64,000 nt of DNA from Armatimonadota bacterium (GCA_963677485.1 OY781964.1:3456001-3520000); one strand, 5' to 3'. Positions 26,454 to 41,403 are shown, counted from the stretch's first letter. Notes: generated by a model from the sequence alone, not told the origin. Numbers and translations: made by a program.

Positions 26454-27083
26454 TTAAGCTAAGCCAGTGGCCTTGAGCCATGACTGTGCGATCAAACTGT
26501 GGCCTGCACTGGTGGGGTGTACCCCGTCGGATGCCCAGTAGGACAAACCGGTGTGGCAGGCTGCCGCTGCGAAAATGCCATCCATGGGGATGTAGATGGC
26601 GTCATACTTCTGTGCCAGGGCCCGCGCGACGTGGATTTTGGGGTCGAGGTCTTCACGCCAGTCATTTTGAGCAGGGGACACCGGCATTAGAAATGGCTCG
26701 ATGATGACTATCTTGGCGTCAAGCTCTGTTTTGACACGCTCCAGGATGGTGCCGAAGTTCTGGGCATACTCTTCGGTGGATGTGGGGACGTTGCTGTCAT
26801 ACCGACGCCAGGTGTCGTTGACGCCGATGAGGATGGAGACGACATCGGGTTTTAGGTCGATGCAGTCCTCCGTCCACCTGTTGACCAGGTCGATGCTCCT
26901 GTCACCGCTGATACCACGGTTCAGGATGGTGATGTTGTGGGCAGGGTGTGCGGCGGAGAGCTGGCCCTGGATAAACATCGGGTATCCGCCGCCCAGCTCC
27001 GCATCGTTGGTGCGGCTGCGACCGGCGTCGGTGACGCTGTCACCCTGGAACAGTATGGTTAGGTTGGTATATGGATCTATCAT
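26454..27083 (-). CDS. SGNH/GDSL hydrolase family esterase
   Basis: FQGDSVTD, NRGISG, LIGVND, DGVHP. Start moved to MIDP (27083), which has a GGAGG RBS; the longer ORF runs through the tRNA. Confidence 0.92.
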   Translation of the reverse strand: MIDPYTNLTILFQGDSVTDAGRSRTNDAELGGGYPMFIQGQLSAAHPAHNITILNRGISGDRSIDLVNRWTEDCIDLKPDVVSILIGVNDTWRRYDSNVPTSTEEYAQNFGTILERVKTELDAKIVIIEPFLMPVSPAQNDWREDLDPKIHVARALAQKYDAIYIPMDGIFAAAACHTGLSYWASDGVHPTSAGHSLIAQSWLKATGLA

Positions 27084-27219
27084 GTGTGGATGAACCTCCG
27101 TAAAGTTGGCAATCGAGGATATTATAACGCTAATGGGAGGCAGGAGACAGGAGAAGAGGAGGGGAATTGGTTCACGCGAAGGCGCGAAGACGCGAAACGA
27201 AGGGGGAGAAAACGAAAAA

Positions 27220-27296
27220 TGGTCGGGGTGGCGGGACTTGAACCCACGACCTCTTGACCCCCAGTCAAGCGCGCTACCAAACTGCGCCACACCCCG
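27220..27296 (-). tRNA. tRNA-Pro(GGG)
   Basis: Minus strand reads CGGGGTGTGGCGCAGTTTGGTAGCGCG-CTTGA CT GGG GG TCAAG-..GGTTCAAGTCC..CACCCCGACCA. Confidence 0.97.
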
Positions 27297-27336
27297 TAAC
27301 CAACAGAATTATAACAGTTAGGCGCCCATCAGTCAA

Positions 27337-27364
27337 GTAGGGGCAGGCCCACTGTGCCTGCCCT
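27337..27364 (+). repeat. GTAG-type REP hairpin
   Basis: GTAG-GGGCAGGC-CCACTGT-GCCTGCCC directly after the last array gene. Similar GTAG REPs occur near 38808, 38850, 43235 and 43403. Confidence 0.6.
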
Positions 27365-27374
27365 CATTCGGTTC

Positions 27375-28616
27375 CTACGGGCCCGGCAGCGGCAGGATGC
27401 GGCGCTTGCCCGCGGCGTCGATGGTGCCCACGCTCGTCTCTGTCTGCCACCAGCAGTTGCGCACCTTGATCGGCTCCGTCAGCCATTTCGCGTGGCGGAC
27501 GTCCAGGATGCGGATGGGGTGGACATCCCTGTAAAGACCTGAGCTATATATGGCATAGTCTTTCGACCTTGAAATCATATAGATATCTTTGATTTTGCTA
27601 TCGGGAACAAGCTGAGACACAGGTTGGTGCTTTTCCGAGAGTGTGATGATTTCGATCACATCCTTGCCGTTTATCTTCTTGTCGCCGATCAAGGTGTTTT
27701 CATCAAACCACGACACTGGGTATTGAAACCCATGTTTCGCATGGATCTCTTGATCTAGCGAAGGGTGCCTGTTAGGGTTGGATCTCACCAGATGCCAACT
27801 GTATTCCGGAGCTGTTTGTCCCGGACGGCAATTATTTACCATGTAGATAACCTTTGCGCCATCAGGGCTAATGTCCGCTATCTCTGCACGGTCAAGCATG
27901 TCATCACGCCTGAAGTTTGGTAAATGACCTATTGAAAAAATGAAAACTACCCAGATTACGGATATTAGGGCAAAACCTGTTATCAACAGCCTGCTTCTGG
28001 AGTCCCACCGGCAGTACCTATGTAACAACAGCATCAGTATGGGTGTTGCCAACAAGGCTCCCCATATTGGATAGAAAGTTATTGGAGTTTTGCCAGCCGA
28101 GTTTGGTAATAGCACAACCAGCAAGGCGGTAGGAAAGGCCCAGAGCAGCATGTGAAGATTCGTCTCGAAACGGCCAAACACAGAAAGCCCAAACCCAAAA
28201 CACCATGCAAGAAATGTGAGCCCCACCGCTTTGATCAACCCATATTCCATTCCGTGAAGACTGAGGAACGGCCGGTATTCCGGCTGACATGCGATTAGGA
28301 ACACGACCAGGCCTAACAGTGCGGCCGCTATACTATAGACCAGTGCAAGCAATGCCTTTACATACATTAGCTTATCCAGGTTGACAGCCATCGACGCTCC
28401 ATATTCAAACGCCCTGGTCTCTTTTTCTCGGGAGATGGAATAGGCTCCAAACACCATGGAGATTATCGCTGGCAGAAATGCCCAACCTGTCGTACAGTCT
28501 ATGCTTCCTTGAAATGTGTAGGAAGTGCCGATTGCGACAATCAACATGGAGCTTAAACATAATACGAGCCCGTATATCCAGCATTCGCGGTGCTCTTTCC
28601 ACAGCAACCGTTTCAT
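27375..28616 (-). CDS. ABC-2-like permease type A, cassette 4 (A4), with variable C-terminal soluble domain
   Basis: MKRLLWKE start, ISREKE loop, about 7 hydrophobic segments, ISPDG, conserved tail LDVRHAKW..VRNCWWQ..GKRRILPL. Confidence 0.75.
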   Translation of the reverse strand: MKRLLWKEHRECWIYGLVLCLSSMLIVAIGTSYTFQGSIDCTTGWAFLPAIISMVFGAYSISREKETRAFEYGASMAVNLDKLMYVKALLALVYSIAAALLGLVVFLIACQPEYRPFLSLHGMEYGLIKAVGLTFLAWCFGFGLSVFGRFETNLHMLLWAFPTALLVVLLPNSAGKTPITFYPIWGALLATPILMLLLHRYCRWDSRSRLLITGFALISVIWVVFIFSIGHLPNFRRDDMLDRAEIADISPDGAKVIYMVNNCRPGQTAPEYSWHLVRSNPNRHPSLDQEIHAKHGFQYPVSWFDENTLIGDKKINGKDVIEIITLSEKHQPVSQLVPDSKIKDIYMISRSKDYAIYSSGLYRDVHPIRILDVRHAKWLTEPIKVRNCWWQTETSVGTIDAAGKRRILPLPGP

Positions 28617-29869
28617 CTCTTTTCATCTCCTGTCCACTTTATGACTGGTCCCAGCGTCATGGTGTCTAGCTTTAGAATACGGGCTTCACCAGGTAGGTCA
28701 TCAACAAATGTCGCGATTTTTGGGCTACGGAACATCATTTCGTATATGTTACTGTCGTTGGCCATGATCAACTTCGTGGTGCGAGTAGGTATATCGATAA
28801 CCATGTAGTCATAACCTCGACCGAGTTTTGATTGGAGCCTGAGAAGAAGGTATCTGTTATCATCACTTGATATACTCAACACGTATGCGGAAGATTCTGG
28901 TTCATAGGTATATCGGTCGCGATTGATGGTGGTGATGATCGATATTTCGTTTGATTCATAGTTCCAGCGGATGATACTCGTGGCATCTTTCTTGCTATTT
29001 AATGCGATCGCTGATACAAACTGCCTGCCGTGAATACCTAACGGGACCACACGGTCCCAGTCTCCCCACCGTTTGATCTTTAACTGATAGGAACGCCCTG
29101 TCCTGTAGTCACTGAGTGTGGCGACCCCCTCAGGTTTCCGCGTCACTTCCAGCGATCGATCCGCCGTAATATGGTACCCATACTGACCCAAACGTTCACG
29201 GTCGTCACTGAGCATCTGCCGGATGCCAGCTATAAATACCCATACCAGGCAGATGGTCAGCACGAGTTGTAGAATGGTCGGTATGCGTTTGTGCAGGCGT
29301 GTCGAGAACACTAGAGATAAGGTTGCGATGATCACGCTCACGACTATGATGTTGGTAATCCCCAGCCCTAGGTTTGTCGGTTGATAGTGGAGACTGTTTC
29401 TATTGCCGGCATAATCAAGGAAGGCCGCTATGAATGGTATTGTCGTGAACATGGCTGGAAACCACGGATGCGACCATATACCCAAAGAGTAACCCAACAT
29501 ACCAGCACACACGAACCACGCCAACATGAAAGCTGTAGTGTATGAAAGAGAGCCTTTATGCAGCTCGGACACACAAGCGGTAAAGATAAGAGCACAACAA
29601 CATGCCCATATGGTGATGAGAATAATTGATGGGAGCTTGCTGTGTATCGTTGTGGTGTCGCCACTGGAATGATCTTTTTTACCTCGTGCGGCGGCTAAGG
29701 CCGTGATAATGTACACGATGGGTATGAGAATTAAAACGACAGCAGTATTTTTGTCTCTCCATTGAGCGATGCAAATCACCGCCACCCCCACCGCCAGCAC
29801 CGACGCCCAGCGCTTCCAGTCCTCGCGCCAGACCTTCCAAAACAGCCGCCCGAAAATACTCCAGCTCAT
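28613..29869 (-). CDS. ABC permease-like membrane protein type B, cassette 4 (B4)
   Basis: Invariant N-terminus MSWSIFGRLFWKVWREDWKRWASVLAVGV; about 7 TM plus a soluble C-terminal domain; ATGA overlaps on both sides. Confidence 0.72.
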   Translation of the reverse strand: MSWSIFGRLFWKVWREDWKRWASVLAVGVAVICIAQWRDKNTAVVLILIPIVYIITALAAARGKKDHSSGDTTTIHSKLPSIILITIWACCCALIFTACVSELHKGSLSYTTAFMLAWFVCAGMLGYSLGIWSHPWFPAMFTTIPFIAAFLDYAGNRNSLHYQPTNLGLGITNIIVVSVIIATLSLVFSTRLHKRIPTILQLVLTICLVWVFIAGIRQMLSDDRERLGQYGYHITADRSLEVTRKPEGVATLSDYRTGRSYQLKIKRWGDWDRVVPLGIHGRQFVSAIALNSKKDATSIIRWNYESNEISIITTINRDRYTYEPESSAYVLSISSDDNRYLLLRLQSKLGRGYDYMVIDIPTRTTKLIMANDSNIYEMMFRSPKIATFVDDLPGEARILKLDTMTLGPVIKWTGDEKR

Positions 29870-30009
29870 TGCCCGTTACCTCCCGGCAGCGGCAGGATGC
29901 GACGCTTGCCCGCGGCGTCGATGTAGCCCACGGAGCGGTCGCTCTGCCACCAGCAGTTGCGCACCTTGGTCGGCTCCGTCATCCACTTGGCGTGGCGGAC
30001 ATCGAGGAT
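29778..30009. repeat. ~230-bp GC-rich cassette anchor repeat (A3 tail plus B4 head)
   Basis: Near-identical to 32278-32516 and 34769-35006. Half copies lie at ~27383-27515 (A tail only) and 37311-37408 (B head only). Confidence 0.92.
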
Positions 30010-31119
30010 AAGCATATTGGCAGGACGGCTGTATTCAAAATCCGCATACATGACATAATCGCCGTTTGCCGATGGAGTAAACGCAAGTTGTTCACCGGAC
30101 TCCAGGGTGGGTACCTGAGGTATCGAATGTTGGTTATCTGCCAGGTTGACGACATTAGCATAGGGTTTGGAGTTCTTCTCTGAATAGACTATGGCGGTTT
30201 TGCTGTCTACCCACGCCTGTATACGCTTATAATAGGCTGCTCCCTTATAAACATCATCAATGCGATGAAGCAGTTTACCGTCACGGAGGTCGACGAACTG
30301 CCAGTGGTGTTTAATTTCTCGGCCGGGCTGTTCTGTCGACACGATGTACAGTGCTGTTGCGCCGTCTGGGCTGACTGTACGTAGCTGTCTGCTCATAGCC
30401 GGATATCGATAGGTGAAGGACTGATATTTACCGGCATACAGGGTGATGATTGCTGACAACACCATAATCGTGATGAATCCCGATTGCAATGGTGTCTTGT
30501 CCGAGTGCCAGCCACAGTGTCTATGCATAACTATCACAAGCAGCGGCGTGACCATCAACACCCAAGTTGACCATGATTCCCAGCGTGTGATTGGAGTGTT
30601 GTGGCTAGCGAATAGAGGAATCATCCAGGCCACCAATGATACCCACAATAGTATGTGCAGGTTGGTTTCAACGCGGGGATAGATGGACAAGCCGAAACCA
30701 TAGTACCAGCCCAGTGATGTCAACCCAACAGCAACTGCAACGCCACATCCCAGATCATGAAGGTTGATCAATTGCCTGTATTCTGGTCGGCACGCGAGGA
30801 GAAACACCACCATGCTGGCAATCGCTGCCACGATACTGTAGCTCAAAGCCATTAGCGCCTTAGCCAACACGAGTTTATCCAGGCTGATAGATCGTGAAAC
30901 CAAGCCTTCAAGACTGTGGTTCTCTTTTTCACGTGAGAGCGTTGATGCTCCCATGACCGCCGATATGATGACCGGTAGAACAGACCAGCCGGTGACCTCG
31001 TTGAGACGACCTTGAAATGTATACGAGGTTCCGATCGCTACAATCAGCATGGAGCTAATGACCAATGCGAGACCGTACAGCCAACACTCACGGTGCTCTT
31101 TCCAAAGTAGACGTCTCAT
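29866..31119 (-). CDS. ABC-2-like permease type A, cassette 3 (A3)
   Basis: MRRLLWKE, LSREKE, VSPDG, same conserved tail. Confidence 0.75.
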   Translation of the reverse strand: MRRLLWKEHRECWLYGLALVISSMLIVAIGTSYTFQGRLNEVTGWSVLPVIISAVMGASTLSREKENHSLEGLVSRSISLDKLVLAKALMALSYSIVAAIASMVVFLLACRPEYRQLINLHDLGCGVAVAVGLTSLGWYYGFGLSIYPRVETNLHILLWVSLVAWMIPLFASHNTPITRWESWSTWVLMVTPLLVIVMHRHCGWHSDKTPLQSGFITIMVLSAIITLYAGKYQSFTYRYPAMSRQLRTVSPDGATALYIVSTEQPGREIKHHWQFVDLRDGKLLHRIDDVYKGAAYYKRIQAWVDSKTAIVYSEKNSKPYANVVNLADNQHSIPQVPTLESGEQLAFTPSANGDYVMYADFEYSRPANMLILDVRHAKWMTEPTKVRNCWWQSDRSVGYIDAAGKRRILPLPGGNGQ

Positions 31120-32369
31120 CGTGTGCTATCCTTCTTCCATCCAAGAATGGGTCCAAGGACCAGTGTGCTAGTATTGAGTAACCGGGCCCTGTTGTGCTCA
31201 CGATCGGTGAATATCGCGGTAGTGGGTGTTGGTATCTCCATGTCGTACTTCGGGTATGCGTTTGACATAATGATCTTCATTTCGTGAGTCCGGATGTCCA
31301 ATAACCAGTAGTCACATCCTTGCCCAAGTTTCGAGCGTAGTTTCAACAGCATCAGGCGTCCATCTTCGCTGACTGTGCCGATATGTACACCTTCTGATCC
31401 CTCGTAATACTGACTGTTATCGATATTTAAGATGGTCTTGACTTGATTTGATCTGTAGTTCCACTGAATGATTTGGCTGACTTGCTTCTGGCGATCAAAT
31501 GCTGTGGCCAACAGTGATTTGTTTGAACATACAGCCAAAGGCACTAAGGTATCCCATGATCCATGCTTCTTGATATCGAGAGTGTAGCTGTGTTTTGTTT
31601 TCAAGTCGTTCAGCACCAAATATCCATTTTCTGCACATGATGCTTGGAGGGAGCGATCCGATGATGTGATACTTTTGGGCATGTCCTGCGTTCTAATCCC
31701 ATCGTTGGACAAGTGTGCAACAACAGTCGTAAATGCCCAGATTATGCAAGCTGCTGTGGCGAACTGGAAGATTACAGGCCATCGAGTCTTGCGTTTTACT
31801 GCTTGTGTTAACGAGATATATAGTATTACACTGCTGGTAATGGCTATGTTTAATGACGATAATGCGGGAAATGCCACCGTATGTGATGCATCTCCATAGT
31901 AGTAAATATTGTCAGTTCCTAACATTATTACCAGCGTCGTTATTATGGCAGGCAACCAGGGATGCGCCCATATGCCAAGTGCGTACCCTGTTACCCCGGC
32001 CGAGATGATCCATACGAGCAGGAAACTCACTAATACGCTGATTGGACATTCGAAGGGGATGTATAAACACCGCGATAATGCCAGGGCAGAGATGGCCGTC
32101 CAGATGATCACGAATACGATAGATGGGATTTTGTATGATATGGTGGAATCTCCAACGATGAAGCTATCTCGTTTCCCTCGTCCGGCCGCCATGGTGGTGA
32201 ACACATAGACGAGTATCCATAATATCACCATGTTTATCCAGCTTACCATGGCTTCCGTAGACTGAAAGAGTAGTAGTGCCGCCACCCCAACCGCCAGCAC
32301 CGAGGCCCAGCGCTTCCAGTCCTCGCGCCAGACCTTCCAAAACAGCCGTCCGAAAATGCTCCAGCTCAT
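31116..32369 (-). CDS. ABC permease-like membrane protein type B, cassette 3 (B3)
   Basis: Invariant 29-aa N-terminus; HPW, SKLG.G.DY and LGP..W motifs shared with the other B genes. Confidence 0.72.
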   Translation of the reverse strand: MSWSIFGRLFWKVWREDWKRWASVLAVGVAALLLFQSTEAMVSWINMVILWILVYVFTTMAAGRGKRDSFIVGDSTISYKIPSIVFVIIWTAISALALSRCLYIPFECPISVLVSFLLVWIISAGVTGYALGIWAHPWLPAIITTLVIMLGTDNIYYYGDASHTVAFPALSSLNIAITSSVILYISLTQAVKRKTRWPVIFQFATAACIIWAFTTVVAHLSNDGIRTQDMPKSITSSDRSLQASCAENGYLVLNDLKTKHSYTLDIKKHGSWDTLVPLAVCSNKSLLATAFDRQKQVSQIIQWNYRSNQVKTILNIDNSQYYEGSEGVHIGTVSEDGRLMLLKLRSKLGQGCDYWLLDIRTHEMKIIMSNAYPKYDMEIPTPTTAIFTDREHNRARLLNTSTLVLGPILGWKKDSTR

Positions 32370-32516
32370 TGCCCCTTACCTCCCGCCAGCGGTAGGATGC
32401 GGCGCTTGCCCGCGGGGTCGATGTAACCCACGCTCGTCTCTGACTGCCACCAGCAGTTGCGCACCCTGATCGGCTCCGTCAGCCACTTGGCGTGGCGGAC
32501 ATCGAGGACGCGGATA
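32278..32516. repeat. ~230-bp GC-rich cassette anchor repeat (A2 tail plus B3 head)
   Basis: Direct repeat spaced about 2.5 kb from its neighbours. Confidence 0.92.
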
Positions 32517-33616
32517 GGGTCGATATCACTGTATACACCTGAGCTGTATATGGCGTATTCTTTCGACTTTGAATGCATATAGCTCTCTTTGATTTTGCTA
32601 TCGGGAACAAGCTGAGACACAGGTTGGTGCTTTTCCGAGAGTGTGATGATTTCGATCACATCCTTGCCGTTTTGAGTCCTGTCGCAGATCAAGGTGTTTT
32701 CATCAAACCACGACACTGGGTATTGAAACACATGTTTCGCATGGATCTCTTGATCTGGCGAAGGGTGCCTGTTAGGGTTGGAGCTCACCAGATGCCAATT
32801 GTATTCCGGAGCTGTTTGTCCAGGTCGACTAATGGGTACCATGTAGACAACCTTTGCGCCGTCAGGGCTAATGTCCGCTATCTCTGCACGGTCAAGCATG
32901 TCATCACGCCTGAAGTTTGGTAAATGACCTATTGAAAAAATGAAAACTACCCAGATTACGGATATTAGGGCAAAACCTGTTCTCAACAGCCTGCTTCTGG
33001 AGTCCCACCGGCAGTACCTGTGTAACAACAGCATCAGTATGGGTGTTGCCAACAAGGCTCCCCATATTGGATAGAAAGTTATTGGAGTTTTGCCAGCCGA
33101 GTTTGGTAATAGCACAACCAGCAAGGCGGTAGGAAAGGCCCAGAGCAGCATGTGAAGATTCGTCTCGAAACGGCCAAACACAGAAAGCCCAAACCCAAAA
33201 CACCATGCAAGAAATGTGAGCCCCACCGCTTTGATCAGCCCATATTCCATACCATGAAGGCTGAGAAACGGCCGATATTCCGGCTGACATGCGATTAAGA
33301 ACACGACCAAGCTTAACAGTGCGGCCGCTATACTATAGACCAGTGCAAGCAATGCCTTTACATACATTAGCTTATCCAGATTGACAGCCATCGACGCTCC
33401 ATAATCAAACGCCCTGGTCTCTTTTTCTCGGGAGATGGAATAGGCTCCAAACACCATAGAGACGATCGCCGGCAGCAATGCCCAACCTGTCGTGCAGTCT
33501 ATGCTTCCAAGAAATGTGTAGGATGTGCCTATTGCGACAATCAACATGGAGCTCAAACATAATACGAGCCCGTATATCCAGCTCTCGTGGTGCTCTTTCC
33601 ACAGCAGACGTTTCAT
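32366..33616 (-). CDS. ABC-2-like permease type A, cassette 2 (A2), close paralog of A4
   Basis: Colinear with A4 at an offset of exactly 5000 nt, with long identical nucleotide stretches. Confidence 0.75.
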   Translation of the reverse strand: MKRLLWKEHHESWIYGLVLCLSSMLIVAIGTSYTFLGSIDCTTGWALLPAIVSMVFGAYSISREKETRAFDYGASMAVNLDKLMYVKALLALVYSIAAALLSLVVFLIACQPEYRPFLSLHGMEYGLIKAVGLTFLAWCFGFGLSVFGRFETNLHMLLWAFPTALLVVLLPNSAGKTPITFYPIWGALLATPILMLLLHRYCRWDSRSRLLRTGFALISVIWVVFIFSIGHLPNFRRDDMLDRAEIADISPDGAKVVYMVPISRPGQTAPEYNWHLVSSNPNRHPSPDQEIHAKHVFQYPVSWFDENTLICDRTQNGKDVIEIITLSEKHQPVSQLVPDSKIKESYMHSKSKEYAIYSSGVYSDIDPIRVLDVRHAKWLTEPIRVRNCWWQSETSVGYIDPAGKRRILPLAGGKGQ

Positions 33617-34860
33617 CTCTTGTCATCTCCTGTCCACTTTATAACAGGTCCTAGACTCATGGCATCTAGTCGAAGAATTCTGGTTGTTTTACGATGGTCA
33701 TCCAAAAACGTGGCGATCTTCGGGCTGCGGAACCCCATTTCGTAAATGTTGCTGTCATTAGCCATGATCATCTTCGTGGTGCGTGTTGGTATATCGATAA
33801 CCATGTAGTCAAAACCATTACCGAGTTTTGATTTGAGCCTGAGTAGAAGATATCTTCCATCATCACTTGAAGTGTGGAATATGGCACGGCCAGACTCCAT
33901 GGAATAGTCGTACCGATGACTATTGATAGCGATGATGATAGATACATCGTTCTTGATGTAGTTCCAACGGACTATACTCGACTCGGCCTTCTTGCTGTTC
34001 AATGCGATCGCCGAAACAAACTGATCGCGTTGAATGCCTACAGGAATCACTCGGTCCCAACCACCCCACTTTTTGATGTTTAATTTGTAGGAACGCCCTG
34101 TCCGGTAGTCACTGAGTGTGGCGACCCCCTCTGGTTCCTGCGTCACTTCTAACGTTTGATCCGCCGTGATTTGATGCCCATACTGCCCCAAATGCTCACG
34201 GTCGTCATCAATCACATAAGCCATCCCTGCCACAAATCCCCAGACCAGGCAAATAGTAAGTATGAGCTGAAGTATGGTCGGCATGCGCTTGTGCAGGCGT
34301 GTTGATAAAACAAGAGATAAGGTGGCGATTACCACGCTCACAGCTGCGATGTTGGCTATTCCTAGCTCTGGGAGTGAGGGTTCATAAGGCAGACTGTTGT
34401 GATAACTTATATAGTCAATGAATGCCGCGATGAATGGCAGTGTTGTGATCATGGCTGGAAACCACGGATGTGACCATATACCCAAAGAGTAACCCAACAT
34501 ACCAGCAGATACGAACCAAGTCACCATGAATGCTGTGGTATATGCAAGAGAGCCTGTATGCAACTCGGGGAGACAAGCGAAAAAGACAAGAGCATATACA
34601 CTTGCCCATATGGTGATGAGAACAATGGACGGCAGTTTTTCATATATCGTTGTGGTCTCGATATTATTACAATCTCGTTTCCCCCGTATGGCGGCCATGA
34701 AACTAGACATGTATATAAACAGAATTGGTATCCCTGACACATTGATGTATCTCCGAGCGATGCATATAACCGCCACTCCCACCGCTAGCACCGACGCCCA
34801 GCGCTTCCAGTCCTCGCGCCAGACCTTCCAAAACAGCCGCCCGAAAATGCTCCAGCTCAT
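33613..34860 (-). CDS. ABC permease-like membrane protein type B, cassette 2 (B2), closest to B4
   Basis: Invariant N-terminus; shares PEGVATLSDYRTGRSY and IMANDSNIYEM with B4. Confidence 0.72.
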   Translation of the reverse strand: MSWSIFGRLFWKVWREDWKRWASVLAVGVAVICIARRYINVSGIPILFIYMSSFMAAIRGKRDCNNIETTTIYEKLPSIVLITIWASVYALVFFACLPELHTGSLAYTTAFMVTWFVSAGMLGYSLGIWSHPWFPAMITTLPFIAAFIDYISYHNSLPYEPSLPELGIANIAAVSVVIATLSLVLSTRLHKRMPTILQLILTICLVWGFVAGMAYVIDDDREHLGQYGHQITADQTLEVTQEPEGVATLSDYRTGRSYKLNIKKWGGWDRVIPVGIQRDQFVSAIALNSKKAESSIVRWNYIKNDVSIIIAINSHRYDYSMESGRAIFHTSSDDGRYLLLRLKSKLGNGFDYMVIDIPTRTTKMIMANDSNIYEMGFRSPKIATFLDDHRKTTRILRLDAMSLGPVIKWTGDDKR

Positions 34861-35006
34861 TGCCCCTTACCTCCCGCCAGCGGCAGGATGCGGCGCTTGC
34901 CCGCGGCGTCGATGTAGCCCACGGAGCGGTCGCTCTGCCACCAGCAGTTACGCACCTTGATCGGCTCCGTCAGCCACTTGGCGTGGCGGACATCGAGGAC
35001 GCGGAT
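34769..35006. repeat. ~230-bp GC-rich cassette anchor repeat (A1 tail plus B2 head)
   Basis: Direct repeat; a hand count gives 118/180 G+C over 34801-34980. Confidence 0.92.
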
Positions 35007-36122
35007 GAAGGGAGAACTATCCCATCCAATCGATTTCATTATGATGTAGTCACCTTTGACCGATGGTCGGATATCGCTGCTTCCTGAACCAAGGATTATA
35101 CTTGGAAGAGTATGCGCTATCGGATGGTATCTGTCTTGGAAAGTGATGACTCTCACGCACGGTTTGTATGCTGTCTCGAAATACTCAATAACCGCAGTGT
35201 TTGCCCCAATCCATGTTTTGCTATTATAACTACCATTTATGATGTTGGCGTTGTCGCATCGATATAACTTGTTGCCGTTGCTCGCGTCAGTAAATTGCCA
35301 GTAAGTGTTGGATGCTGAACGTTTGGACTGCTTCACGGTCACCAAAAAGAGGGCGACATGGCCGTCTGGGCTGACACATATGAGCTTAGGTTTACTGGAT
35401 GGATGGTTGATCATATAAGCCTGATGTCTTCCGAACAACATCGCTATGACAACTGACGCGATGACTATCAATACAAATCCCGGTTTGAGCAGTTTATGGT
35501 CTGAACGCCATCTGCACTGCCTGTGCAACAGGATGACAGCTGCAGGTGTGATCATTAAAATCCATGTTGGCCACAATATCCACCATGATCGAACAACTTC
35601 ATATGTGGCTATCGTTGGTACCAAGAATGCGACTAACATACCCCACATGAGCGTGTGTAGATTTGTTTCGAAGCGTGCAAAGATAGATAATCCGAAGCCG
35701 AAATACCAAGCCATCGAGTTGATTGCTATGGCCTGAAACAATCTAGTAACGAGCTCATGGGGATTGAGCAAATCTCTGTATTCAGGACGACATACAATTA
35801 GGAACACTATCAGGCTGGAAATAGCGGCTAATGCGTTATAGATAAGGGCAAGCACCGCTTTTGCCAGAACAAGGGTGTCTGGGTTAACCGTGTTGTATGC
35901 TGCAAAATCATGGGTTCTGCCTTCTTTTTCGTGTGAGATTGAGAATGCCCCAAACATCATGGATATGATGACGGGTAGCATGAACCAGCCAGTGATGAAA
36001 TCTATATGCCTTATGTATGTATATGCTGTCCCTATTACTACGATCAGCACGGAACTCGCACTTAAAGCAAGACCATATGGCCAGCTCATACGGTTCTCTT
36101 TCCACAATATGCGCTTCATCAT
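34857..36122 (-). CDS. ABC-2-like permease type A, cassette 1 (A1)
   Basis: MKRILWKE, ISHEKE, VSPDG, same conserved tail. Confidence 0.75.
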   Translation of the reverse strand: MMKRILWKENRMSWPYGLALSASSVLIVVIGTAYTYIRHIDFITGWFMLPVIISMMFGAFSISHEKEGRTHDFAAYNTVNPDTLVLAKAVLALIYNALAAISSLIVFLIVCRPEYRDLLNPHELVTRLFQAIAINSMAWYFGFGLSIFARFETNLHTLMWGMLVAFLVPTIATYEVVRSWWILWPTWILMITPAAVILLHRQCRWRSDHKLLKPGFVLIVIASVVIAMLFGRHQAYMINHPSSKPKLICVSPDGHVALFLVTVKQSKRSASNTYWQFTDASNGNKLYRCDNANIINGSYNSKTWIGANTAVIEYFETAYKPCVRVITFQDRYHPIAHTLPSIILGSGSSDIRPSVKGDYIIMKSIGWDSSPFIRVLDVRHAKWLTEPIKVRNCWWQSDRSVGYIDAAGKRRILPLAGGKGQ

Positions 36123-37402
36123 TTATGATCTCCTGTCCACTCAACAACGGGACCCAAGTTTGCGGTCTTTAGCTCTAGAATTCGAGTGGAATTCCGCTCT
36201 CGGTCGGTGAGTGTGGCGATTCCATGGTTGTTTACTTCAATATCGTATTTGGGACTGACATTAGCCAGGATAACCTTCAATATATTGGCTCGTATGTCAA
36301 TCAAGCAATAGTCACATCCTCTGCCCAGTTTTGTTTTCAACCTCATGACCACGTATCTGCCGTCATCGCTGGTGGTTCGAGGAGATTCTAGACCGTCGAA
36401 GTTGGACCGATACTCGTTCCCGTTGATAAAATACTGTCTATTGCCCAGGTCCATTAGTGTTGTTACTCGATTAGCCAGATAATCCCAGCGTATGAGGCTG
36501 TTCGTGTGAAGCTGCTTGTTGAATGCAATGGCCAGAACATACCGGTTACGACATATCCCTACAGGTATCGCCGCGCTCCAATCACCAAATCTCCTGGTAT
36601 TTATAGTGAAGGAACGTCCAGTCTTGCGGTCTTGAAGATATAGTAAACCTGCTGTTTTTTGGCGTGCTTCGAGTGTGTTATCATCTGAGGTAATGCGGCT
36701 CTTCGTGATATCCTGTGCACGATTCTCGCTGACTAGGCCGTATGCCGCAATAGCCCACAATATGCATAGGGCACCGATGAACTGGTAGCTGATCGGTATG
36801 CGCTTATTACATCTTGATGATAATGCAGATGCCGCGGCAACAATGATCACTGTGGCTACCGCCAAATTGAGTGCCGTAAATGCTGGGTATGGGATGTGGG
36901 TATGAAGTGTCAAGCTGCGTGCATAGTAGTTCTCGATTTCACATCCTACTACAGGTATTAACAAAATGGCTGAGAACCACGGATGTACCCATTGTCCGAG
37001 GACATACCCAATCAGTCCGGTTGAGACCATCAACAACATGATGAATGGGAACAATCCGCCATATGAACTCTTGGTCTCTAGATACAAGCTTAAAGATGGT
37101 AATATCGCGGATATGCTTGACCATATTACTATTAGCACCATAGACGGTGTTCTGTAGAAGGTCGCTATTGTATTCGCATCAAGACGATCTTTGTTACCTC
37201 GTACGGACGCAACAGCTATGCCGACAACCATGAAGATAAAAGCCGACATTACCACATAGGTATTTCGATCGCTATCGTCCAGAAGTGGGGTACTACTAAA
37301 AAATAGGTATGCCACCACCCCAACCGCCAGTACCGAGGCCCAGCGCTTCCAGTCCTCGCGCCAGACCTTCCAAAACAACCGCCCAAAGATGCTCCAGCTC
37401 AT
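36119..37402 (-). CDS. ABC permease-like membrane protein type B, cassette 1 (B1)
   Basis: Invariant N-terminus; ATGA overlap with the ATPase stop codon. Confidence 0.72.
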   Translation of the reverse strand: MSWSIFGRLFWKVWREDWKRWASVLAVGVVAYLFFSSTPLLDDSDRNTYVVMSAFIFMVVGIAVASVRGNKDRLDANTIATFYRTPSMVLIVIWSSISAILPSLSLYLETKSSYGGLFPFIMLLMVSTGLIGYVLGQWVHPWFSAILLIPVVGCEIENYYARSLTLHTHIPYPAFTALNLAVATVIIVAAASALSSRCNKRIPISYQFIGALCILWAIAAYGLVSENRAQDITKSRITSDDNTLEARQKTAGLLYLQDRKTGRSFTINTRRFGDWSAAIPVGICRNRYVLAIAFNKQLHTNSLIRWDYLANRVTTLMDLGNRQYFINGNEYRSNFDGLESPRTTSDDGRYVVMRLKTKLGRGCDYCLIDIRANILKVILANVSPKYDIEVNNHGIATLTDRERNSTRILELKTANLGPVVEWTGDHK

Positions 37403-38298
37403 TGCCCCTCCTCCGGTCCGCCGACCAGTGCCACAAAGATATCTTCCAGACTCATCTGTTGCACATCCATCTCCATCGGTTGGAGCGCACGCAGACGCTC
37501 CAGCAGCTCGGGGGAGCTCTTGACGGTCAGCACCGCCTGCCGACCGGTCTGATCACACTCCAGCACACCGGGCAGGGAGGCCAGATCTGCGGGCTGCTCG
37601 GAAAAGCTCAGCACCACCCGCTGCACGCCGTTCTTCAGCTCCTCAAGAGGGGAGCACCACACCATATGGCCGTGGTCGAGTATCCCCACCCAGTCGGCCA
37701 CGCGCTCCACCTCATGCACAATGTGCGTGCTGAAGAACACGGTGCGGCCCTGCTGCTGGATCATCTCAATCACTTCGCCCAGGAAGTCGCGCCGCACCAC
37801 AACGTCCAGACCGGCGGTGGGTTCGTCCAGTATCAGCAGCTCGGGGTGATGCGCCAGCGCCAGCAGCAGACCCAGCTTCGCCTTCATGCCGCGGCTCAGC
37901 TCGCGCACCTTCTTCTTGCCATCTAACCCAAGGCGCGTTTTGTGCTCCTCGGCCAGCGCGTCGTCCCAGTCGGGGTAAAATCCCTTGCAGAACCAGATGA
38001 TCTCATCCACCTTCATCCAGTCATACATCTGCTGGCCGTCGGCCACATACCCGATGCGGCTCTTGATCTGCCTGGATTTCTTCACGCTGTCCAGTCCCAG
38101 CAGCTTCGCGGAGCCGGATGTGCGGGGCAGCAGGTCCATCAGCATCTGAATGGTGGTGGTCTTACCCGCTCCGTTGCGGCCCAGGAAGGCAAACACGCTG
38201 CCCGCCGGCACCTTCAGGTTCAGGTGGTCCACAGCGGTCTGGTGGCCGTAACGCTTGGTTAAATCGCACGTCTCAATGGCGTAGCTCAATTCGCTCAT
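37399..38298 (-). CDS. ABC transporter ATP-binding protein (YtrB-like)
   Basis: Walker A GRNGAGKTT, signature LSRGM, Walker B LILDEPT, H-loop STH. Confidence 0.95.
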   Translation of the reverse strand: MSELSYAIETCDLTKRYGHQTAVDHLNLKVPAGSVFAFLGRNGAGKTTTIQMLMDLLPRTSGSAKLLGLDSVKKSRQIKSRIGYVADGQQMYDWMKVDEIIWFCKGFYPDWDDALAEEHKTRLGLDGKKKVRELSRGMKAKLGLLLALAHHPELLILDEPTAGLDVVVRRDFLGEVIEMIQQQGRTVFFSTHIVHEVERVADWVGILDHGHMVWCSPLEELKNGVQRVVLSFSEQPADLASLPGVLECDQTGRQAVLTVKSSPELLERLRALQPMEMDVQQMSLEDIFVALVGGPEEGQ

Positions 38299-38315
38299 GG
38301 TTCACTCCCTCTAAT

Positions 38316-38720
38316 CTACTTCGGCTCATCATGGCCGGATGATGTGTTGGTTGAAGATAGTCGCTGTTGGATGAGATCGATGAGTTCCTCACCGCTGACG
38401 TCCAGTTGGCTGGCATCACGCAGCAGGCGGTCGATGGCCTGGCTGAGGGTTTGGCGCGCGTAATCCGCGGCGACTCCCTTCACGCTTTCGGCGATGAAGC
38501 TTCCGGTGCCGTGGAGAGTGACCAGGATTCCCTCACCCTCCAACTGCTTGTAGGCCTTGCTGACGGTCAACGGGTTGATTTTCAACTTCAGCGAGGTCTC
38601 GCGCAGCGAAGGCAGACTGTCGCCAGGCTGCAGCACGCCGGTGGCGATGGCGTGCTTCACCTGCTCGACGATCTGCGCATAGACCGGTATAGAACTGCTG
38701 GTATCAACTACGAAAATCAT
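38316..38720 (-). CDS. GntR family transcriptional regulator, YtrA subfamily
   Basis: 134 aa; IPVYAQIVEQ, LPSLRE, INPLTVSKAY..LE.EG, GTGSF; short C-terminal domain; lies directly upstream of an ABC ATPase. Confidence 0.93.
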   Translation of the reverse strand: MIFVVDTSSSIPVYAQIVEQVKHAIATGVLQPGDSLPSLRETSLKLKINPLTVSKAYKQLEGEGILVTLHGTGSFIAESVKGVAADYARQTLSQAIDRLLRDASQLDVSGEELIDLIQQRLSSTNTSSGHDEPK

Positions 38721-38730
38721 GGCCCGCCAA

Positions 38731-38780
38731 CTGTGTTAGTGATGTATAACAGTATATATGGTGTTTTACCTCAATGTCAA
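38731..38780 (-). promoter_or_regulatory. sigma70-type promoter with an overlapping putative YtrA-type operator
   Basis: Minus strand TTGACA (38775-38780), N18, TATACT (38751-38756), then the imperfect IR CTGTTATA-CATCAC-TAACACAG (38731-38752). Confidence 0.7.
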
Positions 38781-38886
38781 GGGGTATGGTAGGAATTGTA
38801 AAATTCGGTGGGGCATCGCGTGCGGTGCCCATGTGCGCGCCTGCCATTCGTAGGGGCATCGCGTGCGGTGCTTTGGCTGGATTCGG

Positions 38887-39630
38887 AACCGCGGATGGAC
38901 GCAGATGGACGCGGATGGGACGGTGGACTGTCACGCGAAGACGCGAAGACGCGAAGGCGCGGAGGGATAGGGTGGTAGCTGCCTGGGAACGCCAATCTCC
39001 CGATTGGCCTCCGGTGAAGTGACGGGGTCACGCGGGGTATTTGTTTGAACCGCGGATGGACGCGGATGGGGATGGTGTACTGTCACGCGAAGACGCGAAG
39101 GCGCGAAGGGGATAGGGTGGTGGCTGCCTGGGAACGCCAATCTCCCGATTGGCCTCCGGTGTAGTTACGGGGTCATGCGGGGTATTTGTCTGAACCGCAG
39201 ATGGACGCGGATGGGACGGTGGACTGTCACGCGAAGACGCGAAGGCGCGAAGGGGATAGGGTGGTTGCTGCCTGGGAACGCCAACCGACCGATTGGCCTC
39301 CGGTGTAGTCACGCTGTCACGAGGGTATGTGTCCGAACCGCGCATCGACGCAGATGGACGCGGATGCGACGGTGGACTGTCACGCGAAGACGCGAAGACG
39401 CGAAGGGGATAGGATGGTGGCTGCCTGGGAACGCCAATCTCCCGATTGGCCTCCGGTGAAGTCACGCTGTCATGCGGGGTATTTGTCTAAACCGCAGATG
39501 GACGCGAATGGACGCAGATGGGGACGGTGGACTGTCACGCGAAGGCGCGAAGGCGCGAAGGAGATAGGGTGGTAGCTGCCTGGGAACGCCAATCTCCCGA
39601 TTGGCCTCCGGTGAAGTTACGCTGTCACGC
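38887..39630. repeat. five tandem copies of a ~145-155-bp composite REP-like unit
   Basis: GCCTGGGAACGCCAA..CCGATTGGCCTCCGGTG starts at 38981, 39126, 39270, 39423 and 39578; each unit also carries (ACGCGAAG)n and (GGACGCRGAT)n submotifs. Confidence 0.92.
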
Positions 39631-41403
39631 GGGGGTGCCCAAGGGCGCGGGAACCGCGCCCCTTGTATGCTGCTGGTAGATATACCGCGCGCGGCCGCTG
39701 GGGGCGGTGTCGCCGTGTGTCCAGGCGGTCAGGATATCGCCGTCCTTCAGGCAGTTATCCGCCCACTTGAACTGCAGACTCACTAACTTACCAGCCAATC
39801 CCAGAAGCTTGCGCGGGATGGTGATCATCGACTGGTTTCCCTCCAGCCTGTAGTCCACATCGGCCAGTTTCTTCCACTTCCAGCCACCCTGACAGACCTC
39901 CAGAACCGCCTTGCTGCCTGGTGACACGCGGTTTACGGCATACTGGAACCCCTCCCAGGCCGGACCTTTACCGGTGCTGATGAAGAGCTGCATCCACTGC
40001 GGACCCGTGCGTGGTGTGATATCTTTGGTGGTCAGCACGTAGAAAACCAGGTTCTTGGCGTCACGGGCCACTTTGGCCACACGCAGGTCGTTGCGACCGC
40101 TGTTGTCTGTGTAGTGCAGTTCCTTGCCGATGCCATCATGGTCACGGGGCAGTGTCTCGTTGATGGTGTCCAGATAGCTGGGCTGCACCTTCTGCCATGC
40201 CGACCAGGGCGTGTTCTTGCCGATACTCACTTCGCGGCCTGCTTTTGGCACCGCACGGGCGCCTTTGAACTGGCGGATGTAGTTCACCATCTGGTAGTAG
40301 TAGTTGTCAGAATGTCCGCCCACCATCGGCTCGATATCGCGTGAATACTCCTGGTTGAATGTATCCACAAAGATCACTGGCTTCTTCACGCCTAGGAACT
40401 CCGGTAATCGCAACGCCATCCACTCATTCCATCCCGTGACGAAGATGAAGTCGGGGTCTTCTTTAATGGCGTGCTCGAACTGCTCAGCAAGATTGAACCC
40501 CATATTCACCGCTCCGGGCCGGGTGTCGCGTGCGCCGTTGTGCCATGTGCGTCCATATACGCGGTCGCCATCGCTCATAGAGCCCACTTTCCCATCGACT
40601 CCATTCTGCGAGGCCCCCACTGACATCATCTCTCGTTCGCCCTGGCTGTTTTTGAACATGTGCTGGGGGTATATCTCCAGCCAGCTCCACTGGTCTGGGC
40701 CGGAGGGGCCATCGAAATACGATGGCATCGGCTTGCGGAAGGTGAAGAACTCCTTCTGACTGCCAGTGGCAAACGCGGGGTCTGCCATGACCAACGGCTT
40801 CCCTTTCCATAGATACCATAACTCCTTGTAAAGGCCGGGCCGATACAACTGATCCCATAGCTGGTTCAACGAGGGGGTAGGGTCGCCGAAGGGGCACAGG
40901 AAGGCGATTTGCGGGGTCTCGAGCCCTTCGCGGCGCATCTGAGTCCATGTCTCCGCAAGGGCTTTCCAACTCTCAGGGTAGGTCACATTGTTGGTGACAT
41001 CAAAGATGACCACATCCACACCTGCATCGCTGAGCATCGTCGCGTGACGGCGTAACACCCATGTGTCGGTGTTCAGATAATAGCCATATATCGACTCCCC
41101 CCACTGATGGAAGCTGTACTGCGGGCCCCAGACCGGACTGTCGGCGTTCCTCACCGCGCTGGGATCTTTCGCCAGCGCCTTGGGAATATCGTATGGGCCA
41201 TACTTCAGGTCCAACCACAAAAAGTAGAATATACCCACCGCTTTACCTGGGCGTGGCGCCGGCACCTTCGGGGCAATGAGCAGGGGACGTCCCAGTGCAT
41301 CGGTGGCAGCCCAGGTATCGGGCATCGTGTCGATAGGTTTTGCCATCAGCGATCCTCCGATCAGTGCAAGAGCGATCAGCGGAATCACGGAAACGGGTGT
41401 CAT
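39625..41403 (-). CDS. secreted putative glycoside hydrolase (GH71/99-like), paralog 1
   Basis: Signal peptide; TWAATDALGR, VGIFYFLW, WGE..YGYY, FDVTN, TGWNEW, EYSRDIEP. Confidence 0.65.
   Translation of the reverse strand: MTPVSVIPLIALALIGGSLMAKPIDTMPDTWAATDALGRPLLIAPKVPAPRPGKAVGIFYFLWLDLKYGPYDIPKALAKDPSAVRNADSPVWGPQYSFHQWGESIYGYYLNTDTWVLRRHATMLSDAGVDVVIFDVTNNVTYPESWKALAETWTQMRREGLETPQIAFLCPFGDPTPSLNQLWDQLYRPGLYKELWYLWKGKPLVMADPAFATGSQKEFFTFRKPMPSYFDGPSGPDQWSWLEIYPQHMFKNSQGEREMMSVGASQNGVDGKVGSMSDGDRVYGRTWHNGARDTRPGAVNMGFNLAEQFEHAIKEDPDFIFVTGWNEWMALRLPEFLGVKKPVIFVDTFNQEYSRDIEPMVGGHSDNYYYQMVNYIRQFKGARAVPKAGREVSIGKNTPWSAWQKVQPSYLDTINETLPRDHDGIGKELHYTDNSGRNDLRVAKVARDAKNLVFYVLTTKDITPRTGPQWMQLFISTGKGPAWEGFQYAVNRVSPGSKAVLEVCQGGWKWKKLADVDYRLEGNQSMITIPRKLLGLAGKLVSLQFKWADNCLKDGDILTAWTHGDTAPSGRARYIYQQHTRGAVPAPLGTPA

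Follow-up and report, generated by a model that had tools for sequence, protein, structure and literature searches.

A 64,000-nucleotide (nt) stretch of an Armatimonadota genome (GCA_963677485.1 OY781964.1:3456001-3520000; hereafter the window, with positions counted from its first base) carries an array in which one ABC ATPase gene is followed by four pairs of permease-like genes, termed B and A, and in which each A-to-B junction is a near-identical, GC-rich repeat that we call an anchor. The DNA of the anchors is more uniform than protein constraint explains, anchor copies cluster by genome, and the units that they bound turn over and reassort between related genomes. The array probably consists of ancient tandem paralogous units whose junctions are homogenised by gene conversion and whose units are gained, lost and reassorted by crossover within those junctions, with GC-biased repair explaining the spike in GC content at third codon positions (GC3) that marks each anchor.

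The window belongs to a 5.22-Mb genome (G000). The array lies on the minus strand, and in order of transcription the block comprises a GntR regulator, one ABC ATPase, B1-A1-B2-A2-B3-A3-B4-A4 and tRNA-Pro(GGG). The eight B and A genes, 413-427 codons long and of two alternating types, run from 37402 down to 27375, with a 4-nt ATGA overlap at every gene junction along the array. A genes end in ...GG(K/N)GQ-stop and B genes begin with MSWSIFGRLFWKVWREDWKRWASVLAVGV. The ATPase gene, the paralogues (with the length of each open reading frame, ORF) and the anchors, the full copies of which come from repeat search and alignment, are as follows.

37399..38298, minus strand: single ABC ATPase (nucleotide-binding subunit); ABC_tran domain PF00005, 88.4 bits, above the cut-off of 25 bits; DrrA1-3_C, 35 bits, cut-off 27.4 bits
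37312..37414, minus strand: upstream half-anchor, made up of the end of the ATPase gene with its GGAGG, the ATGA overlap and B1 up to about codon 30
36119..37402, minus strand: B1, permease-like paralogue, unit 1, ORF of 427 amino acids
34857..36122, minus strand: A1, permease-like paralogue, unit 1, ORF of 421 amino acids; sub-threshold ABC2_membrane_2 match, 20.9 bits
34755..35006, minus strand: anchor 1 (A1 end / B2 start)
33613..34860, minus strand: B2, unit 2, ORF of 415 amino acids
32366..33616, minus strand: A2, unit 2, ORF of 416 amino acids
32264..32516, minus strand: anchor 2 (A2 end / B3 start)
31116..32369, minus strand: B3, unit 3, ORF of 417 amino acids
29866..31119, minus strand: A3, unit 3, ORF of 417 amino acids; sub-threshold ABC-2 matches
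29764..30010, minus strand: anchor 3 (A3 end / B4 start)
28613..29869, minus strand: B4, unit 4, ORF of 418 amino acids
27375..28616, minus strand: A4, unit 4, terminal, ending ...PGP-stop, ORF of 413 amino acids
27382..27515, minus strand: downstream half-anchor, A-half only, 87% over 134 nt

The initial annotation of this DNA had described near-identical A ends and B starts, half copies closing the array at both ends, an abrupt loss of similarity and a contrast between GC-rich anchors and AT-richer bodies. Each of these descriptions holds. Three 245-nt repeats, 87-96% identical, sit astride the A-stop/B-start junctions at 29764-30008 (the reference), 32264-32508 (87%) and 34755-34999 (96%); a fourth copy, at 37298-37409 (90%), belongs to a 112-nt sub-family. 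Searching the whole genome with the 252-nt anchor returned five matches, all inside the array: full copies at 100, 96 and 92%, and half copies at 87% over 134 nt (27382-27515) and 90% over 105 nt (37312-37414). The edges are sharp when resolved in 15-codon bins, with nucleotide identity rising from 0.34 to 0.82 at about 45 codons before the A stop and falling from 0.86 to 0.35 past B codon 30. In 200-nt windows the anchors are 65.5-66.5% GC and the cassette bodies 41-55%; the genome as a whole is 54.4% GC, and its 1-kb windows reach 62.1% at the 99th percentile. GC3 is 0.83-0.96 in the anchors of this genome and of a second genome of the same genus (G001), against 0.43-0.55 in the bodies, with a crude genome-wide median of 0.64 and 99th percentile of 0.79. 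Body GC and GC3 both lie at about the genome's 5th percentile, and the ATPase gene has a GC3 of 0.81.

The anchors coincide with strongly conserved protein and translation signals. Across 43 A-type and 21 B-type sequences, down to 13-27% identity, conservation is highest in the A-type C-terminal motif WWQS..VGY.D..GKR and in the N-terminal motif RL(L/F)WK..RE.W of both types. In the A3 structural model, the anchor codes for the last four strands, where confidence within the beta domain is highest. GGAGG stands 7-9 nt before each B start, including the one after the ATPase gene and those in a third genome (G002). As the initial annotation had observed, the ATPase tail shares the junction sequence: GGGCAATGA is found at the ATPase/B1 junction and at all three A/B junctions. 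Translated, the GGAGG ribosome-binding site gives the GG(K/N/E)GQ tail, which explains why this sequence recurs in the ATPase tail and at the G002 junctions, where the tails are different. From the motif positions and the ribosome-binding site, the anchor junction is the one place where three constrained elements abut.

This coincidence raises the prospect that selection without any recombination, acting on two peptide motifs, a ribosome-binding site and locally preferred GC-ending codons, made the anchors alike. The deep conservation of both motifs and the invariable GGAGG fit such selection, and extreme GC3 alone lifts expected codon identity to 0.54-0.62. The synonymous sites argue otherwise. 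Synonymous divergence (dS) is 0.06-0.62 in the anchors, whereas the bodies are saturated (proportion of synonymous differences 0.71-0.82), so the anchors do not diverge at synonymous sites as far as the bodies do, in agreement with the initial annotation. Identical residues share the same codon at frequencies of 0.74-0.84 in anchor bins and 0.14-0.62 in body bins; pooled over the anchors, the observed value of 0.79-0.81 exceeds every expectation tested (0.39-0.62, from three codon-usage references: tuf plus rpoB, the ATPase plus GntR genes, and the anchors themselves). By Fisher's test, anchor and body differed significantly in 13/13 pairs (p 4e-10 to 4e-2).

Two controls point the same way. 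The A N-terminus has an amino-acid identity of 0.74, yet a codon identity of 0.54 and a GC3 of 0.58, and its pooled codon identity is 0.45, compared with 0.79 in the anchors. A genome from another family of the same phylum (G302) encodes GntR-ATPase-B-A-B-A (L047 4201-11131) with 471-amino-acid A proteins, a 77-nt junction gap and no anchor, and its B 5' ends are just 73% identical over 89 nt. Expression-related codon bias was also considered as the cause of the anchor GC3 and is ruled out by the GC3 of highly expressed genes, which reaches only 0.66-0.67 in tuf and 0.64 in rpoB. Protein constraint alone does not explain anchor identity, and an origin of the anchors by selection alone is improbable. 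The bodies themselves appear to be functional and under purifying selection, judging from a ratio of nonsynonymous to synonymous divergence of ~0.3 between close alleles (A2-A4, B2-B4).

Comparison of three genomes, with few sites each, shows that the anchors evolve in concert, being more alike within a genome than between genomes. Junction dS, estimated from ~47 synonymous sites per junction, is 0.11-0.24 inside G000, whereas comparison of G000 with G001 gives 0.32-0.45; the ATPase orthologues of these two genomes differ by 0.21, and their anchors are 79-98% identical. In G002, the B-halves share 80-92% identity among themselves but only 64-74% with those of G000 and G001, and the B bodies that follow these similar 5' ends are only 13-24% identical in amino acids. 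All copies within a genome share lineage-specific synonymous states, as seen in the G002 B 5' ends, and the grouping of anchor copies by genome in the three available genomes is a further point against selection alone. The junctions thereby display both hallmarks of a gene-conversion tract, namely synonymous similarity inside sharp edges and greater likeness within than between genomes. When the B profile was run against 400 other genomes of the phylum, 15/401 genomes matched, counting G000, and arrays with anchors were confined to the window's genus (3/3 genomes, again counting G000).

The units between the anchors differ between close relatives. The ATPase genes of G001 and G000 are 94.7-94.9% identical in nucleotides, and the array end (half-anchor, spacer and tRNA) is 84.5% identical over 297 nt; the anchors are 87-93% identical in this comparison. 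G001 carries two pairs and G000 four, and the bodies of the two genomes have no nucleotide similarity. Across all sources the body types are discrete, with 78-95% amino-acid identity within a type and 31-47% between types. Within G000, the B2 and B4 bodies are 69% identical in amino acids, and the A2 and A4 bodies 92% (body dS 0.13). The terminal ...PGP-stop tail occurs on three body types: G000 A4, G001 A2 and protein P0006 of a metagenome-assembled genome (MAG). Unit combinations unseen in G000 or G001 occur in two further sources. In one MAG, consecutive accessions give a type-IV A, an unseen gene, a type-I A and a B2/B4-like B, and three proteins that are each listed with a single 6847-bp contig, which they likely share, are an A like that of G000 unit 3 and a B and A like those of G001 unit 2. 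In another protein, P0014, a B N-terminus of the G002 type is combined with a body that matches the G000 B2/B4 type at 49-51% identity.

Unit 1, unit 2/4 or unit 3 also turned up at 93-99% identity in contigs of four metagenomes, each from a separate study (anaerobic digester, cave, lake water and drinking water), with the ATPase matched at 94%; array stretches without contig cover in X6-X9 were not taken as unit absence. Runs X1-X5 contain 92-95% of the window's sampled words. Because of this 93-99% identity across four metagenomes, the body types are stable alleles rather than hypermutating sequences. The family is rare, with 8 and 9 close proteins among 5.8 billion. The B profile gave 209 pattern matches but no relative in JGI metagenome contigs, and the A profile matched G001 alone in species-representative genome contigs. 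The initial annotation had proposed searching with the anchor for further cassettes: other bodies do stand beside it in related genomes, and within G000 the anchor is confined to the array.

G002 also offers a view of a damaged unit. Its array (L018 8152-9659) contains a truncated B of 216 amino acids, the membrane part only, and in A's place a membrane ORF of 290 amino acids that matches nothing in Pfam; beyond these stands a B 5' half-anchor of normal form. The unit appears to be decaying, and by this arrangement a B-half can persist where no A-half is present.

In the explanation that we favour, the sequence of events would run as follows. Three constrained elements abut at each junction: the last beta-blade of A (WWQS..VGY.D..GKR), the GGAGG with the ATGA overlap, and the N-terminal RLFWK.WRE.W helix of B. 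Owing to their slow divergence, the junction stretches would retain DNA identity sufficient for general homologous recombination of the RecA type, for which identical runs of 44-62 nt, the length found between anchors, are long enough. Gene conversion would then make the junctions uniform within each genome, with GC-biased repair the likely cause of the very high GC3, and unequal crossover or allelic exchange in the junctions would add, remove and reshuffle whole B-A units in frame. Related strains would consequently differ in unit number and order.

Several observations weigh against this account. Anchor copies still differ by 4-14%, which implies that conversion is not frequent, and the anchor samples are small (~47 synonymous sites). 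Recombination is visible as footprints only, with no event seen directly. One footprint lies at the internal B/A junction of units 2 and 4, where identity jumps at ~33615 from 64-90% (B) to 92-100%, and another is P0013, a B allele that is a mosaic of B2 and B4; from both, exchange also occurs inside units. Body GC3 is below the genome median, which the favoured model alone leaves unexplained. The block bounded by the GntR promoter and the tRNA (27219-38831) lies at 3.48-3.49 Mb in G000, and its neighbours in G001 and G002 (L019, L018) match G000 at 0.62-0.79 Mb; given these differing contexts, either the whole operon moved or the chromosome was rearranged around it. No excised circles were seen among the metagenome contigs, which cannot show rare forms. 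The only joint in the array that goes back, by 2450 positions from 32226 to 29777 in an X6 contig, was considered as a circle or duplication and rejected, as its 68-nt side lies in an anchor copy and is taken to be one copy aligned to another.

The anchors may also be under strong site-specific codon selection. B codons 8-18 (33 nt encoding RLFWKVWREDW; window 32316-32348, minus strand) differ by at most one base among nine B copies from G000, G001 and G002: 5/9 copies are identical over the whole stretch, the other four (G000 B1 and the three of G002) deviate by a single base, and 9/9 agree in a 19-nt core, despite ATPase genes that are only ~72% identical between G000 and G002. This pattern is more suggestive of constraint at the nucleotide level, or of exchange between lineages, than of conversion confined to single genomes.

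Such near-invariance across lineages would suit an anchor that acts at the RNA level, for instance as a translational-coupling structure or a processing site. A candidate hairpin at ~34870-34887 (minus strand; alignment columns 114-131) pairs GGGAGG with an upstream CCUGCCG and could sequester GGGAGG, and one compensatory change in G002 weakly suggests that the pairing is maintained. The folding energy of the 252-nt anchor, at -112 kcal/mol, is that of shuffled sequences (-112.6 kcal/mol, z 0.11), the covariation term is unfavourable (+2.2 in a 5-sequence alignment), many pairs break in G002, and a local hairpin of ~18 nt cannot account for homogeneity over 245 nt. Rfam placed a tRNA alone above threshold, with one chance-level match at E 0.87. 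An RNA element as the basis of the anchors is thus highly improbable.

A further alternative keeps recombination and changes its purpose. The initial annotation had regarded the anchors as landing pads of an integrase-free integron. In its strongest form, this proposal holds that the anchors are selected as portable homology arms by which horizontally fed B-A cassettes are captured in frame, with no recombinase of their own. The genome has six matches to PF00589, the tyrosine recombinase family to which an IntI would belong, none of them in the window (3456001-3520000) and the nearest more than 1 Mb off. The search for attC-like repeats found a single inverted repeat of at least 14 nt in 27000-38500, inside the ATPase gene. 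These results agree with the annotation's statement that no dedicated recombinase serves the array, and for want of a tyrosine recombinase in the window and attC-like repeats in the array any exchange would have to use general homologous recombination.

Capture of this kind shares all the recombination evidence described above. It would also suit the low GC and GC3 of the bodies, as in many acquired genes, the variation of unit combinations between sources, the composite structure of P0014 and the near-identity of B codons 8-18 across lineages. On the other hand, the anchors diverge about as the ATPase does (64-74% identity to G002, 79-98% to G001), which would make cross-lineage capture inefficient, and their clustering by genome points to intragenomic conversion of old paralogues rather than to capture of foreign cassettes. 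Protein and ribosome-binding-site constraint predicts the position of the anchor, so that it may be a by-product of the two most conserved motifs and the ribosome-binding site rather than a device. The G002 B-half that persists at a junction without any A-half indicates that the anchor is not one indivisible unit, and the breakpoint inside a unit together with the mosaic B allele means that anchors are not the sole exchange points. No circles and no free or orphan cassettes were found, the anchor is confined to the array, and the family is rare. Recombination at the anchors fits the landing-pad proposal, which also withstands both refuting conditions that the annotation had set, on synonymous divergence and on other cassettes in related genomes. 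No insertion event or other sign of incoming cassettes was seen, and we consider recombinase-free capture of foreign units rather unlikely. Equally doubtful, in our estimate, is the bolder combined proposition that the anchors are selected coding homology arms for recombinase-free reshuffling of permease-pair specificity cassettes on one ATPase and that the GC3 spikes are a footprint of GC-biased conversion at 200-bp resolution.

The whole block reads as one operon, whose remaining elements are listed here.

38751..38780, minus strand: promoter-like site upstream of the operon, TTGACA-18-TATACT, 11/12 matches, its placement suggestive only
38316..38720, minus strand: GntR-family regulator, first gene of the operon; Pfam PF00392, 54.2 bits, cut-off 27
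27220..27296, minus strand: tRNA-Pro(GGG), closing the conserved block; ARAGORN, and Rfam tRNA at 65.6 bits

Promoter-like sites in total were no more numerous than in shuffled sequence. The same GntR gene precedes the ATPase in G001 and G302. The tRNA-Pro(GGG) has its own promoter-like site at 27336-27308, and a GDSL-lipase ORF at 26454-27290 (minus strand) has a listed start that crosses the tRNA; because of this overlap, the part of the ORF that extends N-terminally is probably spurious. Immediately before the operon, at 38919-39634, a ~150-nt repeat occurs in five tandem copies that are 74-93% identical. Its ~30-nt core has ~95 other matches in the genome, and one of these (genome positions 632909-633160) lies beside 632704, the end of the match of the G001 flank to G000.

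The A and B permease-like proteins are distant homologues of one another: the A and B profiles align with a probability of 99.3% over 356 columns in a profile-profile comparison. The best matches to ABC-2 families in Pfam, those of A3, lie below the cut-offs (24.2 bits for PF12730, cut-off 27; 23.1 bits for PF13346, cut-off 25), and precomputed Pfam labels PF12679, PF12730 and PF13346 are present on 4/8 close A proteins. B genes have no ABC2_membrane match in Pfam; in their nearest feature clusters, 12-38% of members carry ABC2_membrane or PD40 families. The models of A3 (mean predicted local distance difference test score, pLDDT, 79.2; helices 2-238, strands 242-410) and B3 (pLDDT 80.8; helices 3-228, strands 233-410) predict for A and B alike a helical membrane domain at the N-terminus, followed by a partial beta-propeller at the C-terminus. 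This beta domain is similar to portions of the TolB and prolyl-peptidase propellers, with low TM-scores, since each model matches in part only. A multi-helix membrane domain and coupling to an ATPase gene, two features of an ABC-2 operon, are present.

The B-A pairs probably act as alternative heterodimers on one ATPase. A predicted B3-A3 complex scored 0.53, compared with 0.00 for the best of three controls, with contact agreement between runs of at least 66% and partner pLDDT of at least 72, which weakly favours a direct partnership. The mark that it passes is reached by 116/157 solved complexes and 2/215 mismatches, and at scores of 0.60 or less by just 18 of the 157 solved complexes plus both passing mismatches. 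Since structures of ABC-2 dimers are already solved, the prediction may have passed on resemblance to them alone. By way of a guess, the pairs could provide alternative specificities of an exporter or of an immunity-type ABC-2 transporter. Pfam identified no toxin or immunity family in the units, and the PADLOC defence families gave nothing for A, B or GntR and only generic ATPase matches for the ATPase.

At 15-codon resolution, the locus illustrates how a gene junction may become a recombination hotspot through constraint combined with gene conversion, a hotspot that would move whole two-gene units in frame with no dedicated recombinase nearby. GC3 of ~0.9 in the 245-nt anchors, against ~0.5 on either side, is a candidate footprint of GC-biased conversion in bacteria, and the same contrast offers an easy mark by which to search for similar loci. 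One ATPase with four very different permease pairs bearing partial beta-propellers suggests a transporter with alternative specificities. A literature search of limited coverage returned comparators only and no description of such an ATPase with a multi-pair array.

Among transporters, LanFEG-type and other ABC-2 immunity transporters with a YtrA-like GntR regulator encode an ATPase and then two different ABC-2-type permease genes. The present locus shares with the LanFEG type the small GntR regulator, the ATPase and the two different permease genes. It differs in having four pairs per ATPase, a C-terminal partial beta-propeller on both permeases and scores far below the NCBIfam cut-offs for LanFEG (TIGR03740, 146.6 against 309.75; TIGR03732, 24.3 against 145.2). 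In group II energy-coupling factor (ECF) transporters, one energising module is common to several S components, much as one ATPase would here serve several membrane specificity components. However, the folds are unrelated, and S components are scattered single genes rather than a recombining tandem array. Integron arrays likewise bring many exchangeable cassettes to one locus, probably under one upstream promoter as here, but the boundaries of the present units are coding direct repeats.

Systems that exchange coding segments offer closer parallels. Bacterial genes for surface or secreted proteins undergo segmental concerted evolution and cassette exchange, as in the 3' cassettes of meningococcal tpsA (PMC3848433), with variable segments reportedly moved by conversion between stretches that are conserved. 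Such systems use silent donor cassettes alongside one expressed gene, whereas all units here are predicted to be co-expressed. The orphan cdiA-CT/cdiI modules of contact-dependent growth inhibition (CDI) and the Rhs-CT/rhsI modules are tandem, variable two-gene modules bounded by VENN-encoding sequence, and they recur at other positions in other strains; the authors of that study propose exchange by recombination between the conserved VENN-bounding sequences (PMC3150448). Those arrays resemble ours in their short conserved coding boundary, at which identity is abruptly lost. The orphans are toxin tips with immunity genes, most of them without initiation signals (PMC3150448), unlike the complete, translationally coupled ABC-2-like permease pairs found here, whose anchor spans the stop/start overlap with a GC3 spike. 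The initial annotation's analogy to CDI/Rhs tip swapping is apt for the genetic logic and lapses at the gene products, which include no toxin or immunity family. By this comparison, the genetic logic of the locus is closest to that of VENN-bounded CDI/Rhs modules, although the locus belongs to neither CDI/Rhs systems nor integrons. Exchange of modules at conserved boundaries is already known from CDI/Rhs; what appears to be new here is its counterpart in an ABC-2-like permease-pair array, in which the junctions themselves would recombine.

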